A DNA stretch of 62,938 nt, filler included, from Collodictyon triciliatum (GCA_043381765.1; 3 parts of 3 records of this genome joined end to end with filler, not necessarily neighbours in it); one strand, 5' to 3'; positions 54,039 through 62,938 are shown, numbered from the whole stretch's first letter. Notes: generated from the letters alone by a model not told the origin. Translations and numbers: made by a program.

Positions 54039-54138
54039 NNNNNNNNNNNNNNNNNNNNNNNNNNNNNNNNNNNNNNNNNNNNTTAATTAATTAANNNNNN
54101 NNNNNNNNNNNNNNNNNNNNNNNNNNNNNNNNNNNNNN
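54039..54138. other. Artificial contig-joining linker (44N-TTAATTAATTAA-44N)
   Basis: Same six-frame-stop 12-mer (54083-54094) within an N run. Confidence 0.97.
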
Positions 54139-54241
54139 TTGTTTTTTTTTTGTTTTTTTTTTTTTTTTGTTTTTTGTTTTCTTCGTTTTGTTATTCGAGG
54201 AGGAGGAAATATAAAACTGGATAAGCAACAAAGCAGCATAG

Positions 54242-54520
54242 CAATGGGAGGATGGCAGAACACGCAGATCACGAATGGTTGTCCGGGCCCGACTGCCTCG
54301 CAGCGCGTTCGGCTCTTTGCGGCTGACGCAGCCTGATTCATCCTTTGTGCCGGGTGCTGTGTTGGTATTCCGCACGGGCGAGGTGCAAGACGTATATGGC
54401 ATGACAACCCTGAACGTTATGTCTGATGCAGCATCGTCGCACCGGTTCTTTGCTTGGTGTCCAGCGTGTTGGGTTTCCGGGAGGGAAAGGACAGGGAAAG
54501 ACAAAGGCACAGAAAAGTGA
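54242..54520 (+). CDS. Probable terminal exon of an unknown gene truncated by the contig start
   Basis: CATAG acceptor at 54237-54241, then a GC-rich open frame QWEDGRTRRSRMVVRARLPRS...GTEK*. The stop is 50 bp from the convergent stop at 54571. Confidence 0.4.
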   Translation, partial: QWEDGRTRRSRMVVRARLPRSAFGSLRLTQPDSSFVPGAVLVFRTGEVQDVYGMTTLNVMSDAASSHRFFAWCPACWVSGRERTGKDKGTEK

Positions 54521-54570
54521 TGATATGATTAGAGAGAGAGAGAAATAGATATAGTCCTTTATATGAGGTT

Positions 54571-57006
54571 CTAATTGTATTCCTGCGAGAGCGCTTTCTC
54601 TTTTTCTGTCCGGTGATATATAATCCTGGCTATTGTATCGTAGTGGGATTCTAAACTCACGAGGCTTTCGAGTGACTGCAAGTGTTCAAAGTTGTCGGCT
54701 TGAGCTGCAGGCGGGTTGGTGAACAGCTGAGTTAAAATCGTTCCTATATGAAAATCTGTAGCGGTAACCCCCTTGTCTTCATTTACAAGATACTTTGTTC
54801 TTTTGGGCTCTTGGTTGTCTTCATTGTCTTGGATGGGTGCGTCCATTCCCGAGAGGAGAGCAGACTCCGTGGTGCTTTCTTTTCGGCCGCGAAGGGGTAA
54901 CCACAATAATATCAGATAAAAAAATGAGTGGGGGTTTTCACTCGTTTACCCAAATTAATCAATTTATAACCCCTTGGGCAGTGCATGAAATGCGATTTTT
55001 TTTTTAAAATAAAAAAAAAAGCTTTTTCTTATCATTAGTCCACCTTTCGGTATACACGAGTTGAGGAAAATATGATGAAATTTTGAAAAGAAACTGTATT
55101 ACCTTGCATAGATGGCTGCACCGCGCCTGTACTTTGTATATCCTCCGAAATAAATCCTACATAAAATATTATTTTAGAGAGTGTGCCGAAGCACTTTTAT
55201 TATATTATGTGAATCTGACCACTACACATCCTTTCGTCTGCATATGTATAAACGTATTCATCCGATAGCAGTAGCGCTTTATTGGTTATTGAAGATTGAA
55301 CAGATTCTCCATGATTCGCATCGTCATGCATTCCACCATTTATTAAATCATGTCCATTTGTGTTCTGGTTATGGAATGTCTGCGTTTCTGCTATCTTTCT
55401 GTTGGCTTCGGTGAATTGTACGTACTTGTTTCTAACCAACAAGTTCCAAAGAACAAATAGGCCCTGTGTATAGTTTTTGGCTGTAATTTCATCAGAGACA
55501 GGAAGTCTTCCATATCTCAGGACTGGAAATAGTTCTTGTATAGTCTCACGAAACAGATTGTGTGTCAATCTGCTTTGTTCATGTAATTTGTTAAAGTTTT
55601 CTTGATAATCATATTTGGGGTGTTTGAAGGATGATAACAACCACGGGTAAGATGGGTGATGTTCATCAGTGAAAATGTAACCAAACGCAGAAATTTGCTC
55701 CATACCATCCATATTTTCAATCTCGCCATTAGATTTATAGTATGGAGCTTTTCTTTGGTTAAATTGGACAATCTTCTTTTGCAGTTCGGGTGATAGGATT
55801 CTTAGCCCTTCTACCAGTAGCTCCACATTTTCGCTTGGATATTTTATCCACTCAAAGTATGTAATCTCCATAGATTGGTTAACCACATACTAATTTATTC
55901 AGAAAGTTCTTAGTTTGGGAAAACTAAAGAATATGATGTTTTTTTTTCTTTAAACCCCCCTTCCCCCTCCTCCTTTGAGTTTTATTTACTTAGTAATCAT
56001 TATGGTGTATAAATTTGCTTTGAAACTGATATAAAGCTTAAATAATGTAATAAAACGCTCGTAAATTTTATTCTACTATGTTAATCGACTATTCAAATAC
56101 ACTACAGCGTTGGAAAAGTCATCGTTACCTGAATCATATAATCGGCGTGACACTGAGAAGCTTTTTGCTCGGTAGCGGGTCTGCCTCTTGAAACATTTGC
56201 AAAATGATGCGAAATATTCAAAGGGAAATAGCCCAGGTATCCCAGATTAACCGGCTCGACAGTTTGTTTGCTTGATACACCATCGACAACCGGGAGTGGC
56301 CCTATATGATATCAAGTGTGACGAGCGCAGCAAACTCTCGAGGTATGTTATTTTTTCTAAAAAAAAAAAAAACCTGAAAATCTGGTAATTCAATGACAAA
56401 TCATATATTTGATGTAGATATATGAAAGCCCATATAGATATATGCCCCCCGGAAAAAAGAAGACGAAAGAGTAAAGGGGAAATGAAGTGTTTTTGAATAA
56501 TCATAAATATCTTTTAAAAAGGGCACGTTACTTGGACCAAACCCGATTACAGGTTCGTACCGACACAGAGCGGCAATGCACAACTGCACAGAGGTCGATG
56601 CAAAGCCGTTGCTGCACTTGTAAACGGACATCAGCTTGCGGAAGGACATGTTCGAGGTGAACCTGGCCAGAAAGATCAGTGCGCGCCACTTGAGCACGTC
56701 GAGTCTTTGGAACTTCATTCGCTCCACTCGGCGCAGGAGCGAAACGACGCTGTCCCATGCGGCTTTTGGCAGGCGCATCTGCTGCTGAAACTCTGCTTCC
56801 GAGGCTGCCAGGAGCGTCCGAACAGAGTTTGGGATGATGAAGCGAAGAGAGGCGTTGGTTTGCCGCTGCGAAGTGCTGCTGCCTGTGCGGACGTCCTTCA
56901 GCCCGCTCCTGAACGAGTCCAGACGGTCCGTGTATTCCCGGTCGAATGCTGCGAGGCGGTCGTGCAGCGCTCGGGAAAGACCCGTGAAGACGCCCCCACT
57001 TGTCAT
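54571..57006 (-). CDS. Harbinger/PIF transposase-derived (HARBI1/ALP1-like, DDE_Tnp_4) gene, 5 exons (57006-56532, 56301-56129, 55889-55220, 55126-55103, 54878-54571), about 549 aa
   Basis: HTH LIFLARFTSNMSFRKLMSVYKCSNGFASTSVQLCIAAL. GYIFTDEHHPSYPWLLSSFKHPKYDYQENFNKLHEQSR matches the Harbinger pattern GYLLGDSGYP..PWLLTP.....FN..H..R. GLFVLWNLL resembles ACCVLHN. All exon phases are consistent. No TIRs seen. Confidence 0.75.
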
Positions 57007-57081
57007 GTTGTGGAAGCTGGCCTGCCTGCGCGCCGCTTTTCTTGTGTTATGTGCATATTCTCTCGCTCCGTTGTTTGCTTG

Positions 57082-57244
57082 TTTTTTTATTTTCTTTTTT
57101 CTTTTTTCTTGTTTTTTATTCTTTTTCTTATTCTTTTTCTTTTTATTTTCTTTTTTATTTTCTTTTTTATTTTCTTTTTTATTTTCTTTTTTATTTTCTT
57201 TTTTATTTTCTTTTTTATTTTCTTTTTTATTTTCTTTTTTATTT
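57082..57244. repeat. 12-bp (ATTTTCTTTTTT)n between the UTP25 stop and the Harbinger-like gene start
   Basis: Direct reading. Confidence 0.9.
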
Positions 57245-57277
57245 CAGTGTTTCTGTGGGAGGGCTTGTGGAGGTTGG

Positions 57278-60200
57278 CTAGCAGAACATGTGCGAGGTTT
57301 TCTCGGAGCTGAGCAGACGCTGGCACCTTTCTGTGCCGAGGATGCGCTCGATTTGAGGCATGTCTGGCTGCATGTAGAGAATGAGCGCCCTGCGTAGGGA
57401 AAAGATTGCGTTTGCGAGGGATAATCAGTCATCGAGTGGTGAGCCTTGTTTGATGCCAATCTGTATACTGTCTTTTGTCTCTTGCGCGTATCTAGCTGGC
57501 ACTACGCACGTCGCGTGGGGATTGTCTTGTCTCTTTTCTTGTAAGGATGCTGTGCAGATGGATAACTTACGTTCCGTCTGTGCTCTCCATCAGGTTGAGC
57601 ACCTCCGGGTAGAAATGAGCAAAGTCTGGGAGTGAGTAAAAAACAACATTGCGGATACCACGGATTCGATATCTTGAGCAAAGAGAAACCGAACAGAAAA
57701 AAAGTGGGGGTGAAGACTGTTAGTTTGTCCAACATAGATAAGGACTTGCCTATGTACTAGAAAAGTACATGGAATATGTTGTCTTGCTCAGATGGCATAA
57801 TCAGTTAAGAGCTTGCTCGCTTTGAGAACTCTCAGAAATGCAAAGGGATAGATAATGATTGATAAGATGTCTTACCGACGGAAAAAGTGAAATCTCTCTG
57901 TGAACAGCACAAAGTCACGCTCCTTGTGGAAAAACTGGAAACGTGCGCGGGAGATAGACGCATTCGATGAATACCTTGATGATGGTTTTATTTTTTGTGA
58001 TGGACATTTCGCTAGTAGAATTAAACAAATGCATTATGTTGGAGGATAGCATGTACATAAAAGCCAAAGTTTGAGTTATTTTATGTTCGTGTGATGATTA
58101 TTGAGGCTTATACTCGCAAAGTTGGCAGAAAGAAATATCCTGCTTCTTGAGGTAGTTACGCAGGCGCACATATTCGAAATACGAACGTACAAATATCAGC
58201 GTCTGCTTCTGAATAGAGCTTTGCAAGTGAGGCAACACCTAAGAGCGTTTGTAGGGAAGATATTAGTTTGATATGTAGTGGGCTTTGCGGTTCTATATTG
58301 TAACTTTTTTTCTTTCATTTGAAAACGTAAAGTCTTCAATCACGTTAATTGAAATAAAAAATTAGCAGGAAATATACACACCAACTTTAATACATCGAAT
58401 TTTATTACCTGCTTAGTAAAATAGTCGAAGCGTTTATCGTCAGCATTTTCAGTGTCTTTGCAATCGATTTTTTGATAAAGCTGGAATTCAGGAAGAAGAA
58501 TAACCCAAAACAAAAAAAAAATGTATCAGAGGGCGTGCTTTTTTTTTGTTTTGTTTTGTTTTTTATTCCCTGTCGAATGAGATCAGAAATTGCGTGTTCA
58601 TATTTGTAATTATACTATACCTGTCTTGTCTGTCTGAGAATATTTTCGATGGAACCAGGATATGTTGGACGCACTTTAATTTGGCCAAAGGCGTCTGCAA
58701 TATAAAGTAATCTCAATTTCTTGTTGATTGGGATTTGCATATGACTTTTGCATATGACTTTTGCATTTGACTTTTGACTTTTGACTTTTGACTTTTGACT
58801 TTTGACTTTTGACTTTTGACTTTTGACTTTTGACTTTTGACGTTTGTCTTTGTTTTAATTTTATTTTGTTTTATTTTTATTTTGTTTCGATGACTGGTTT
58901 AGTTAAAATAAATAATAATAATAATAAAAAAAAAGGGGGATTTTCTTTTCTTTAATGAATAGAATATATCTAGTTATGTACTAAATCAGAAGATTATATG
59001 AATCGTATATGACTTACTATAGCACCATCGAGTAAAAATAGCATTAAATTCTGGATTCATGAAGCTGCTTGCAATAATCGTTTGTCGTGTGTACTTTGAC
59101 CTATTTTGAGAACAAGAGTCGATTAGTTGTACTTTCTCCTTAGTATTTTTCTTCAGCTTTGCAATTATTTTGCATTATGGTACATCTTAACATTATCATG
59201 ACATAGTAATCAGTCATCAATATATGGAATCAAACTTTCCACTTAAACACCATTCGCGAACTCTGGAGAAGTCTGTATTGCTGTGCGATACTGGTAGCAA
59301 ATTCAAAGTGTCAAACAAAGTCACCACATGGTCCCAGTTTTGCATGAGAAATGCATCCGTCTGATCGACTAATATTAAGTGGATTTATGTTATATGAAAG
59401 ATTAAATTCAAATGTTTGATTTTATCGGTGTATGGTTTAAAATAAATATTTGCGTACGGATGACCATTTCAATTGATGATAGAAAGTCGTAATCTCTGTC
59501 CTTGTCTCTGAATTAAAATGAAAAATTGTTTGAGCTGACATATCTTCATGAATTCGCAGAAGGGAAAGTTATCTTTGAAAGTTCTTTATCCTCAAAAAAA
59601 AAAAAAATCATGGTATTCAATCTAAGATTACCCTGTAGCACCAATCAGTAATCGAAGCCCCAGAGGAGAGGCAATGACCAGATCTGATGAGAAAAACTCA
59701 GAGTATATTTTGATAGAACGCTTCGAAAAAGAAAGCCCGACTCTGAAACAGTCATCAATGTTTCCCTCGAATAAGGATTTGAAGTCATCTATATCGCCAT
59801 TTAGAAGCGTTTTAGCTTTGGGTGTGTCCCAAGGAGCGCAACGGAGGAGAGAGGTGTCACACGTCAGCCAATTATAGTTTTACGTGGTTTCGTCTCGTCC
59901 GCTTTTTCCTCCTGGTCGGTACTGTATTCCTGGAAGAATCTCTTCTTGTTTGCAACTTGGTCCTGTTTTTATCTCAGTTTAGCGCATGTCCAGTTGCATA
60001 TGAATTGTATTACCCAAAAATACTATTTTATCAATTGGCATATAACTAACACAGTTCTTTTCATAACAAAAGAAAAAGAAAAGATAGAATGAAATAAAAT
60101 GGAGAGTGTCTTGAACGGTTAGCGAAGCAGATATTTAGCATACGTGTACCCACTTGATGCACTTTTGGTGATAAATTCAAGAACAAATCAACGTATTTCT

Positions 60201-62938
60201 TCGCTGAATTTCTGAAAGGAACTACAATAAGCACAGTCGGACGGGTAAAGCCCTGGTCTCGGATTTCCCTTTGGTAGAAAATAGGATTGTTTCACCTCAT
60301 TAACTTTGATGTATTGAAATAAAAGATGTTGACAATGAAGAGTAAGAAAGAGACATTCAAAATGAATCATGGAAGTAGATCGTGCTTTGGTAATTAAAAA
60401 AAAAATACGGAGGCTCCTTTTTTGCGGATCTTGCAGCATTTATCTTTGCATTTCCCCTCAAGACACGGTCCCTTGACCTTGTCATATAAAAGACATTATG
60501 TCTCTATTTCAATCTCTTATATTTTTTTTTTCATTTAGAAATCAAGGTTACAGAAAACTGTTGCGATGACTGATTACAAATATTTTATCTCAGATGTATG
60601 TCTATGGACGTGATTGTAAATATCATTCATGAGAAATGATCGAGAGCTTTTTAGCCTTTGAATTACTTGAAAATGTGATTAAGAGCGTGTAAGGCAATAG
60701 TTTGTTGTACACCAGGAAGATTTTCTGTCGTCTCGCATGGAAAGTAAACATCCTTATATGTGTTTAATAAAGAAAACAACCGCATTTGGAATGGAGGCAG
60801 TGCTATCAAAGGGGAGAATTTTATTCCCTTAATTAGGCCCAGATTTTTGAAAATGAAAAGATACTAATGTAAATTTTTTGGGTGCGATAGAATTATATCT
60901 CTCATATGAAAACCCTACTAGCATCCTCTTGAGAGGTTTCTTTGGCTCGGAGGTATGATACTTGTTCTATGAGTCTTGCTTTCAGCTACATTTTAAAGAG
61001 TGAAAAGAGCCATGAATTTACTAGCCTAAGTTTTAAATAGAAACTTAAAAATGAAACTTTAATACTCGGCATAACATTTAATGATTATATGAACATATGA
61101 TTTTTTTTTCAATTTATGGTAGGCTTGTAGTTTCACATACTCCGTAATCCTTGAGAGTGTTATGGATGGGTGGTATAGTGGCGTCATCGTCGGTGCAGAA
61201 GATGGATCCGCCGAGTATTTCCCAGCGTGCTGATGAGCTTTTTTTCTTCTCTCGAATTGCGTGGTCATAAACCTTTGTAAACTTTGATGATTTTTTCAAA
61301 ATTCTAGCATCTAATGCAGGCTCCTCAATGAGGTAATGATGCACGTATGGGTCGTCTGAGCGAAGTTCTTCGAGGTTGTATTGGTCAAGATTTGACTCCT
61401 GAATCCACTTTTCTTCAATTTCACTTTTATCCACTAGAAAAAAAAGTTGATAGGGATAATGTGTATAACCCAGCAAATGATATGTTGATGCTACGATTTA
61501 TTATATAGATGTATACATATATATATGTAATAGGTACCCTGTCTGTCGACAAACTGCTTCTCTCCACTCCTTGAAATGGGAACCTCTGGTTGCGATACCA
61601 ATTAGAATGTAGGACAAGCGTTGGTGATTGCTCTTTTAAATGACAATATGATTCTGAACATATTCAAAAAATTAATATGCCCGGTTTTTTATGGCACAAG
61701 CAAATGGTTAGTAGAATACCTTTTTTTCTCGGTTTGATGAGAAGTGATGACCTGTGACTGCTGTTTTCACCCTCTTCATCGTAATTAATTCCAATATCTT
61801 GGAAGCTATCTTGACTATTTTCTTCGTCTTCATTTTCTTCGTCTTCATTTTCTTCGTCTTCATTTTCTTCGTCTTCATTTTCTTCGTCTTCATTTTCTTC
61901 GTCTTCATTTTCTTCACCTTCATTTTCTTCGTCGCTGTCTTCATCCCCGCTGTATTCTTCGTTGCTCAATTCTTCATCTGGAATAACTTCGAAGTCGGCT
62001 GGCTCTAGGCCATCCTCAGCTGCAGAGTCTTCAGAGTCTTCAGAGTCTTCAGAGTCGTTGTTAGTTTTACCTTCTGAAAAAGCATCGCTCTCTCCACCAT
62101 CAGTTCCAAGGGCCCCATCGTCCTTTTCTTCCTCCTCTTCGCTTTGGTCACTTTCTTCTTTGCCCTCACATTCCTTCATTCTCTTCTCCATCATTCTTCT
62201 CACTTCAGGAGCCTTCAGAGACTGCAACAGCGACTGATACGCACTCGGTCGTTCGTACGCATCGTAATCTGGATTGTCGTTGCCTTCAGCACCACCCACA
62301 TCATCGCTGCCTCGACTCTGCTTTCCAGATGGGCCTCTTTTCCCAGAAGATTTTGGCCCATGGGCTGAGTCTTTCCCTCCTCGCACTGTGCCTCTTCTCT
62401 TTCCAATCTCGACAATCGAATCTGCTTCTTCCTGCTCGCTGGTTTCATCGCTCTCGTCATCGACCTCACCGCGAAGAGCTCTTTGTCGCTTCTGTTCCTT
62501 CTCCTGTGATGAATCATATTCGATGATTGGACTCAAATGGAGAGACAGAGGGCGGCTCGGCCGTAAAATGGTAAGTGCTCTGATGAAAGCCTCAATGAGA
62601 GGCGGCATTGAAGAAAGGAAATACTGAAGAAAGATGTGACTAAAGAAAAGAATGAAGTTGGGTTGAATTGAATAGGGTTGAACAGAGTTGAGCAGAAGAG
62701 AAAAGAAAAGAAAAGAAAAACTACTCTGTGCTGGGCTCTGCGCTCCTCTTTGTCCCACTCGTCAGCTGTATTCACAGTCATCATTCTCTCCTTCGCACCT
62801 GCGCCGTCCTTCCCTGTGTTTGCAAGGTGGGTCGGTCTTCGCCCAGGAAGAATCGGATCGGCATTGCGGCTTCGCTGCCTCATCTTCTTGAGAGACGTAG
62901 CGCTGGACCTGGGCTTGAACTTTGGCTTTGAAGACGAT
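57278..62938 (-). CDS. UTP25: U3 snoRNP-associated protein 25 (UTP25/DIEXF); start lies beyond the window
   Basis: Acidic N-terminus; [104 protein letters not shown]; C-terminus ERILGTERCQRLL...MFC*. Confidence 0.93.
58734..58841. repeat. 13-mer units grading into a (CTTTTGA)n array, UTP25 intron
   Basis: CTTTTGCATATGA, CTTTTGCATTTGA, then (CTTTTGA)n. Confidence 0.9.
61818..61932 (-). repeat. Coding 15-bp repeat (EDEEN)n in the UTP25 acidic N-terminus
   Basis: (GAAGACGAAGAAAAT)n on the minus strand. Confidence 0.9.

Follow-up and report, generated by a model that had tools for sequence, protein, structure and literature searches.

The window, by which we mean the whole stretch of 62,938 nucleotides from Collodictyon triciliatum that was analysed, carries near its right-hand end a gene on the minus strand that runs from an ATG at 57006 to a stop at 54571, in five exons and with no frameshift or internal stop, directly downstream of UTP25 (Table 1). 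Two joiners, at 27028-27127 and 54039-54138, are identical in sequence (44 N, then TTAATTAATTAA, 12 nt, then 44 N) and mark the ends of three unrelated contigs, so that neighbourhoods across them are artefacts. The gene lies on contig C1048, which starts at 54139 and leaves just 432 nt of visible 3' flank; the XRN-family gene to the left (49.9-53.5 kb, minus strand), which loses its 5' end at the second joiner, is therefore no true neighbour. Elsewhere in the window, a GC-rich and apparently intronless frame of 521 aa with a glycosyltransferase family 92 domain sits at 2304-3866 (plus strand) in an intron-rich region, and on either side of the first joiner, at 9.1-22.9 kb (minus) and 28.5-38.5 kb (plus), kelch-repeat exons are followed by protein kinase exons; these two regions are probably paralogs.

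The 5' end of the gene has a host-like composition. As the earlier note on this DNA had stated, 271 nt separate the ATG from the UTP25 stop at 57280-57278. Exon 1 has a GC content of 0.59 and a GC3 of 0.72, against 0.36-0.49 in later parts of the gene. The claim that an A-tract and a GC-rich first exon are shared with host genes applies to this gene and to one synaptobrevin-family gene (window 150-520), whereas several other gene starts that we examined were less clear. On the 3' side, a convergent plus-strand gene ending at 54520 had been put forward as a possible partner; it gave no Pfam or Rfam match and no Myb signature, about 380 nt from the contig end. The stretch at 54190-54500, between the 3' end of the gene and a contig-end T-tract, is GC-rich, single copy and without a Pfam or Rfam match. 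Its minus strand carries a pyrimidine tract and AG, and transcript contigs give no cover over 54140-54445; it may be an exon of a 3' UTR or the final exon of a gene that is itself unseen. Upstream of UTP25 and beyond the window, the same contig holds an open frame of 571 aa (L125:4884-6596, plus strand) with no Pfam match.

Table 1. Features at the locus of the transposase-derived gene (coordinates are those of the window)
Feature	Coordinates	Strand	Description
UTP25, upstream neighbour, outside any element	57278..62938	-	Pfam PF22916; spliced joints in X1 and X3
A-rich tract, host-type 5' region without TIR	57065..57260	-	between UTP25 stop and ATG at 57006
Exon 1, aa 1-158	56532..57006	-	long N-terminal helix aa 6-40, then DUF8040-like helical/HTH domain aa 60-150
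Exon 2, aa 159-216	56129..56301	-	eroded D1 strand (GAIDG to GYLG, G182) and start of beta-2; basis: joints, anchor spacing, register scores
Exon 3, aa 217-440	55220..55889	-	remaining DDE_Tnp_4 core, D291 kept, E lost; acidic linker begins
Exon 4, 54 nt	55103..55156	-	X1 contig spans 55103-55157, joined to 54878
Exon 5, aa 458-559	54571..54878	-	acidic linker, NLS-like KRTK (aa 483), final helix and stop; X1 contig 54559-54878
Artificial contig joiner	54039..54138	.	identical to joiner at 27028-27127

The spliced frame comprises 1,680 nt and encodes 559 aa with a single terminal stop, and all four introns are GT-AG, 63-239 nt long and of GC 0.29-0.33, with all eight splice sites intact in the genome, in line with the intact five-exon reading frame described earlier. 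Three runs of apparent transcript type (X1, X2, and X3) belong to one study; their RNA label is a guess that is not on record, and their contigs show presence only. The joined exons in X1 contigs nevertheless identify these as cDNA—contigs of this run, one of the three compared with the locus, bridge introns 1, 2, and 4 at GT-AG ends, with joints at 56300/56531 (intron 1, spanned by a contig that covers 56531-56729 of exon 1) and 55889/56129 (intron 2). Exon 4 required a correction. The contig that covers it has a loose end of two parts: the outer one turns up again at a loose end in UTP25 (57927) and is therefore adaptor, and the inner one, of six letters, agrees with the last letters of exon 3. 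In that molecule exon 4 is therefore 54 nt long. The 24-nt micro-exon proposed previously has an acceptor in the DNA that the contigs do not use, and with exon 4 at 54 nt the protein has 559 aa rather than about 549; the short six-letter overhang of this one contig is also the sole support for intron 3. The C-terminal extension noticed earlier turned out to be mostly an expanded acidic linker. Run X2 matched just an A/T tract, and X3 contained pieces of UTP25 and no exon of the gene downstream of it. Introns of UTP25 are bridged in both X1 and X3; over its last intron (window 57360-57599), contigs of both runs go through as well as across, as would fit a retained intron or DNA. The gene is a real one: a single-copy, spliced, and transcribed frame of 559 aa.

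The two halves of the protein resemble the two domains of PIF/Harbinger transposases. In the ESM Atlas, exon 1 reached a best match of 0.95, with 21 of 30 matches in the DUF8040 set, and exon 3 reached 0.94 to DDE_Tnp_4 clusters, with 30 of 30 matches in PF13359 sets; DUF8040 (PF26138) together with DDE_Tnp_4 (PF13359) is how the 120 listed Harbinger proteins are usually built. We also compared the protein with two profiles of our own. The first was collected with a Harbinger transposase motif, which matched at least 120 metagenome loci, of which 28 among those listed had enough open frame and 19 remained after removal of near-duplicates; the second added 108 of the 120 listed Harbinger proteins to give 127 sequences, or 22 after de-duplication. 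This seed set is biased to the exact D1 motif. The spliced protein scored 32 bits (19 sequences) and 42 bits (22 sequences), with two domains in the correct order, whereas the best of 2,000 shuffles attained 4.2 and 7.6 bits with the respective profiles and 15,000 local shuffles reached 9.8 at most. Exons 1 and 3 were the top two among 1,286 ORFs of the window, and the N-terminal half is the better preserved, at 26.5 bits for the exon 1 domain against 13.5 for the exon 3 core.

Divergence from everything sampled is extreme. The best long pairwise identity to sampled transposases is about 22%, and in a tree that did not include the true ALP1 and HARBI1 the terminal branch measures 6.55 changes per column against a median of 0.68, with unsure placement. 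Exon by exon, Pfam matched no Harbinger family; phmmer with exon 3 against 1.84 billion representatives returned no true homolog (two matches, to repetitive proteins without a transposase domain, were rejected), and hhalign gave a weak match between profile A1 and the sequence by itself (probability 20%, E 0.001). When longer homologs were sought by word index, 0 of 351 candidates were confirmed for exon 3 and 0 of 291 for exon 1; among pattern matches for related loci, 0 of 3 on viral contigs and 0 of 50 on GTDB contigs were confirmed, and a motif scan of viral contigs gave no match, so that phmmer, the word-index searches and the contig scans found no ortholog. Searches of the PDB by sequence returned nothing useful, and no Harbinger core was among its sequences. 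An AF2 model of exon 1 built with the Harbinger alignment (pLDDT 76) places a long helix over aa 6-40, together with an HTH bundle; it superposes on sigma-4-type HTH domains with Z up to 6.8 (rmsd 2.5, 63 residues aligned), a common arrangement in a model that is not independent of the Harbinger alignment. The single-sequence fold of exon 3, where the RNase H-like core was looked for, is of low confidence (pLDDT 57) and lacks the first strands, and fold searches with it returned helical bundles alone and no transposase. The Atlas matches for both halves, and a profile score of 42 bits where shuffles stay at or below 9.8, agree with the Harbinger origin suggested earlier: the protein almost certainly descends from a PIF/Harbinger transposase, with an N-terminal helix and DUF8040/HTH domain followed by a DDE_Tnp_4 core.

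The catalytic site appears to have been lost. All of the motif changes read by eye in the earlier note (GYLG, YPSENV, TD, and THNLFRE) are present. The second aspartate of the triad (D2) is kept as D291, with a block score of 19 bits against 0.8 for the next best. The E column can be placed in two ways. In 101 of 101 pattern-matching sequences (of 127; the pattern allowed just 9-11) the E stands 11 residues after a conserved N, a spacing also visible in alignment A2, and this puts the column at N327 (11.3 bits, next 3.4); MAFFT instead infers a 7-residue insertion and places it at Q334. Neither residue is acidic, although E331 and E335 are close by, and the catalytic E is thus absent from its predicted column in both registers. 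For D1, register scores favour G182 in two of three settings, with D165 tying in one and D212 9-12 bits lower, although one ungapped block prefers the D212 register (10.5 bits). Because these scores alone are not decisive, the position was settled by anchor spacing: the distance from the HTH serine to D1, 47-54 residues in 102 of 106 measurable sequences, points to aa 179-186, and the beta-2 anchor, from which D1 lies 28 residues back in 109 of 113 (range 25-37), to aa 179-191. No acidic residue occurs in the latter interval, nor is there any D or E between 175 and 202. A MAFFT register that takes NQRK as the YRNRKG motif was rejected, as it leaves too few residues before D2. Only 9 of 33 family-conserved columns are kept (hand-anchored blocks), with RKG, GWPGS.HD, and FG all lost. 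A single D-to-A change in the DDE triad of Ping cut excision about 150-fold (PMC2836001). The alignments strongly suggest that D1 is lost along with E, in which case the protein would neither bind metal nor cut DNA; the enzyme is very probably dead, as the earlier note had argued.

The locus also lacks the hallmarks of an active transposon: we found no intact DDE triad, no TIR or TSD, no second ORF, and no multiple copies. DNA and each of two protein queries gave one match apiece, the single copy that had been expected (counts are lower bounds in this fragmented assembly of 14,576 contigs). As claimed before, no TIRs are apparent—the best pair in the flanks, with 432 nt on the 3' side, is 13 nt long and A-rich, is equalled in 5 of 30 shuffles, and has differing TSD letters. 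An 18-nt inverted pair at 54287/56948 was rejected because one arm lies within the coding region. No second ORF of Myb/SANT type accompanies the gene, the 5' neighbour being UTP25, the 3' ORFs having no Pfam match, and none of nine PF13837 matches falling on C1048 (visible from 54139). Searches of the 14,576 contigs with PF13359, PF04827, and a canonical Harbinger query found no intact eukaryotic Harbinger element, again as lower bounds. The sole PF13359 match in the genome was rejected as a source element, being an intact ISL2-type IS on a cyanobacterial-looking contig, and one PF04827 match fell below the cut-off, unsupported by our own Harbinger HMM. The ISL2-type transposase (G000:C1099, L002:1150-1995) lies among bacterial genes: the assembly holds bacterial contamination.

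An open frame in so divergent a transposase argues for retention by the host. We mutated three intact transposase frames neutrally, in 300 replicates for each level of divergence. At 0.5 substitutions per site, where the median score is 41 bits and so matches the divergence of our protein, frames carried 12.7 stops on average and 0 of 300 remained open; at 0.1 substitutions per site, 5 of 300 did. The source frames are close to the profile, which overstates the divergence needed if the gene came from an unsampled lineage, yet the core motifs lost here are ones that an active enzyme should retain, whatever its lineage. Selection by the host has thus probably kept the frame open over the long term. 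The differences between X1 and the genome look neutral and show no constraint: 12 sites differ, 9 of them non-synonymous (of 1,062 such sites) and 3 synonymous (of 291), which gives a pN/pS of about 0.8, with P = 0.75 under neutrality, 0.10 under an omega of 0.3, and 0.02 under 0.2. Eight of the 12 are in exon 5, the core holds three non-synonymous and one synonymous, and none makes a stop. Contig depth in X1 is 3-9, and the sole coding difference in UTP25 (57634, Ser to Leu, hand-read) is also non-synonymous, so that errors or rare alleles may contribute to these counts. Domestication, as the earlier note had read it, still accounts best for the gene, given a frame that is open in spite of extreme divergence and a 5' end with the composition of a host gene.

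We suggest, with a probability of about 0.55, that the gene is an old domesticated PIF/Harbinger transposase that is now a non-catalytic, Myb-partnered nuclear regulator or scaffold. Harbinger elements encode both a nuclease and a Myb protein. Within the IDM complex, aa 1-225 of HDP1 bind HDP2 at the latter's C-terminal region (PMC5339849), and the Ping nuclease's N-terminal half binds the C-terminal half of its Myb protein (PMC7282668). By these precedents the protein would work as a scaffold. Its N-terminal half, the best-preserved part, would bind a Myb/SANT trihelix protein from another locus at that protein's C-terminal region, and this partner would bring the dead transposase to DNA; there the pair might tune a complex that modifies chromatin, in the way that ALP1/ALP2 act on PRC2, and HDP1/HDP2 on the IDM acetyltransferase complex. 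Such an ALP1/HDP1-like chromatin role is plausible. The Myb-partner model is weakened by the lack of an adjacent Myb gene, since co-domesticated pairs in insects are often neighbours (PMC9710019), and by the finding that the halves of ALP1 alone did not bind ALP2 (PMC7282668).

The search for a Myb/SANT partner, negative next to the gene, yielded an unlinked candidate. Nine PF13837 matches were found in the genome, seven of them over the cut-off, and some are ordinary Myb repeats. One belongs to a single-copy, intron-containing gene (G000:C2237, L131:1501-3197, plus strand) with an N-terminal Myb/SANT trihelix (31 bits), an acidic linker, RRKR, and, by eye, a C-terminal coil, a layout like that of Harbinger ORF1, NAIF1, and ALP2; copies beyond one are low-complexity matches only, and its contig, 22.5 kb long, has no transposase within the first 10 kb. 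Ordinary trihelix factors have an ORF1-like layout too, so this gene is just a candidate, for the partner or for a lone domesticated Myb. A complex prediction of exon 1 with its 55-aa C-terminal coil scored 0.01 with the alignment not used, and is evidence neither way. Three other, related trihelix genes (L128, L129, and L130 on C517, C2867, and C840) share a cysteine-containing insert before the second helix and form a small lineage-specific family. As for chromatin machinery, an E(z)-like gene on G000:C607 (L137/L143) has preSET_CXC over the cut-off and SANT-like and SET motifs by eye, with no Pfam SET match on single exons, so that PRC2 is probably present, while a search for the SUZ12 VEFS-box gave no match anywhere. 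A bolder and rather unlikely version would have both Harbinger genes independently co-domesticated, the dead transposase and the C2237 Myb forming an ALP1/ALP2-like pair that steers or antagonises a protist E(z)/PRC2; if true, the recruitment of Harbinger proteins to Polycomb would have happened convergently in a lineage other than plants and animals, perhaps starting from an anti-silencing trick encoded by the element.

Among the alternatives, the one that survives best, while still unlikely, is a domesticated and dead protein with a job unrelated to Myb or chromatin, as a scaffold for another complex or through DNA or RNA binding of its own by the HTH. The absence of a linked Myb gene, the retention of the HTH and the KRTK motif, and an erosion that goes far beyond the triad would all suit it, and transposase-only domestications are known in insects (PMC9710019); yet the best-preserved region is the one that binds the Myb partner in HDP1 and Ping, and candidate Myb partners exist in the genome. 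It is also quite unlikely that the gene was formerly useful and is now under relaxed selection, transcribed through the host-type promoter context behind UTP25 while slowly decaying. The pN/pS of X1 would fit such a decay, as would the low contig depth and the presence in X3 of UTP25 pieces but of none of the gene's exons (as far as contigs that show presence only can tell), but neither the 1,680-nt frame nor any of the eight splice sites is broken in the genome, the X1 differences make no stop, and the simulated survival of so few neutral frames at 0.1 substitutions per site implies that any relaxation would be very recent. Improbable, too, is a role in transposon defence, in which the dead transposase would be a dominant-negative sink for the Myb proteins or the ends of invading Harbinger elements; a kept partner-binding half with lost catalysis is what this predicts, but no eukaryotic Harbinger family was found in the genome (lower bounds), ALP1 did not cross-bind the Ping Myb (PMC7282668), and the protein's identity to sampled transposases does not exceed about 22% over long stretches. 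Finally, a nuclease still active through a rearranged triad (D165 or D212, D291, and E331 or E335), whether a host rearrangement enzyme or an unsampled divergent PHIS transposase, could draw on the kept D291, on E331 one helical turn from N327 and E335 adjoining Q334, on the VVDG word around D165, and on the one block that fits D212 as D1, but it is very improbable given the acid-free D1 interval set by anchor spacing, the 9-12 bits by which D212 falls below the best register, the loss of RKG, GWPGS.HD, and FG, the single copy, and the lack of TIRs.

The preferred reading, of a domesticated and dead Harbinger transposase, describes a known kind of process whose route is familiar from plants and animals. 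Active PIF/Pong/Harbinger transposases (PF26138 and PF13359) share the domain order and motif spacing, whereas here there is no TIR or TSD, no second ORF, a broken triad, and a single copy. Arabidopsis ALP1, a PRC2 accessory protein that joins the complex via ALP2 and MSI1, is likewise a Harbinger-derived host gene with introns and two of the three triad residues lost (PMC4671723, PMC7282668); ALP1 keeps D1 (triad DGA), whereas our protein has lost D1 and E and kept D2 (as G-D-N), is far more eroded and longer (559 aa against 396), and has a putative link to PRC2. HDP1, which acts with HDP2 in the IDM1 histone acetyltransferase complex of Arabidopsis, is described as having an incomplete DDE and no transposon features with a preserved partner-binding N-terminal region, as here, and as being about 30% identical to Harbinger transposases (PMC5339849), in contrast to about 20% for our protein, which Pfam missed exon by exon.

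In animals, HARBI1 keeps a recognisable triad, and the short distance from D2 to E in our protein (35 residues) resembles that of HARBI1, with 36-37 in the short class of the Harbinger set; HARBI1 belongs to a different lineage, and we saw no sign of orthology. In jawed vertebrates HARBI1 is a domesticated transposase with a separately encoded Myb-like partner, NAIF1, which imports it into the nucleus (PMC9392472). The insect genes DPLG, APLG, and LPLG are similarly single copy and without TIRs, with a source element that is apparently extinct, and include transposase-only cases; six further domestications are reported in insects, with or without a linked MADF gene, and these PIF-like genes were proven by synteny and dN/dS, several having an adjacent MADF gene, of which there is none here (PMC9710019). 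The pattern of triad loss differs from those of ALP1 and HARBI1, which argues for a separate domestication event. Documented cases of Harbinger domestication come from flowering plants, vertebrates, and insects, and we found no protist case in the open-access literature, judged by titles and abstract openings. A protist case with a different triad loss would suggest that the route is independent of multicellularity, and a genome with both an E(z)-like gene and a Myb gene of ORF1-like layout alongside this transposase offers a direct test of whether Harbinger proteins have been recruited repeatedly to chromatin complexes, as ALP1 and HDP1 were in plants.
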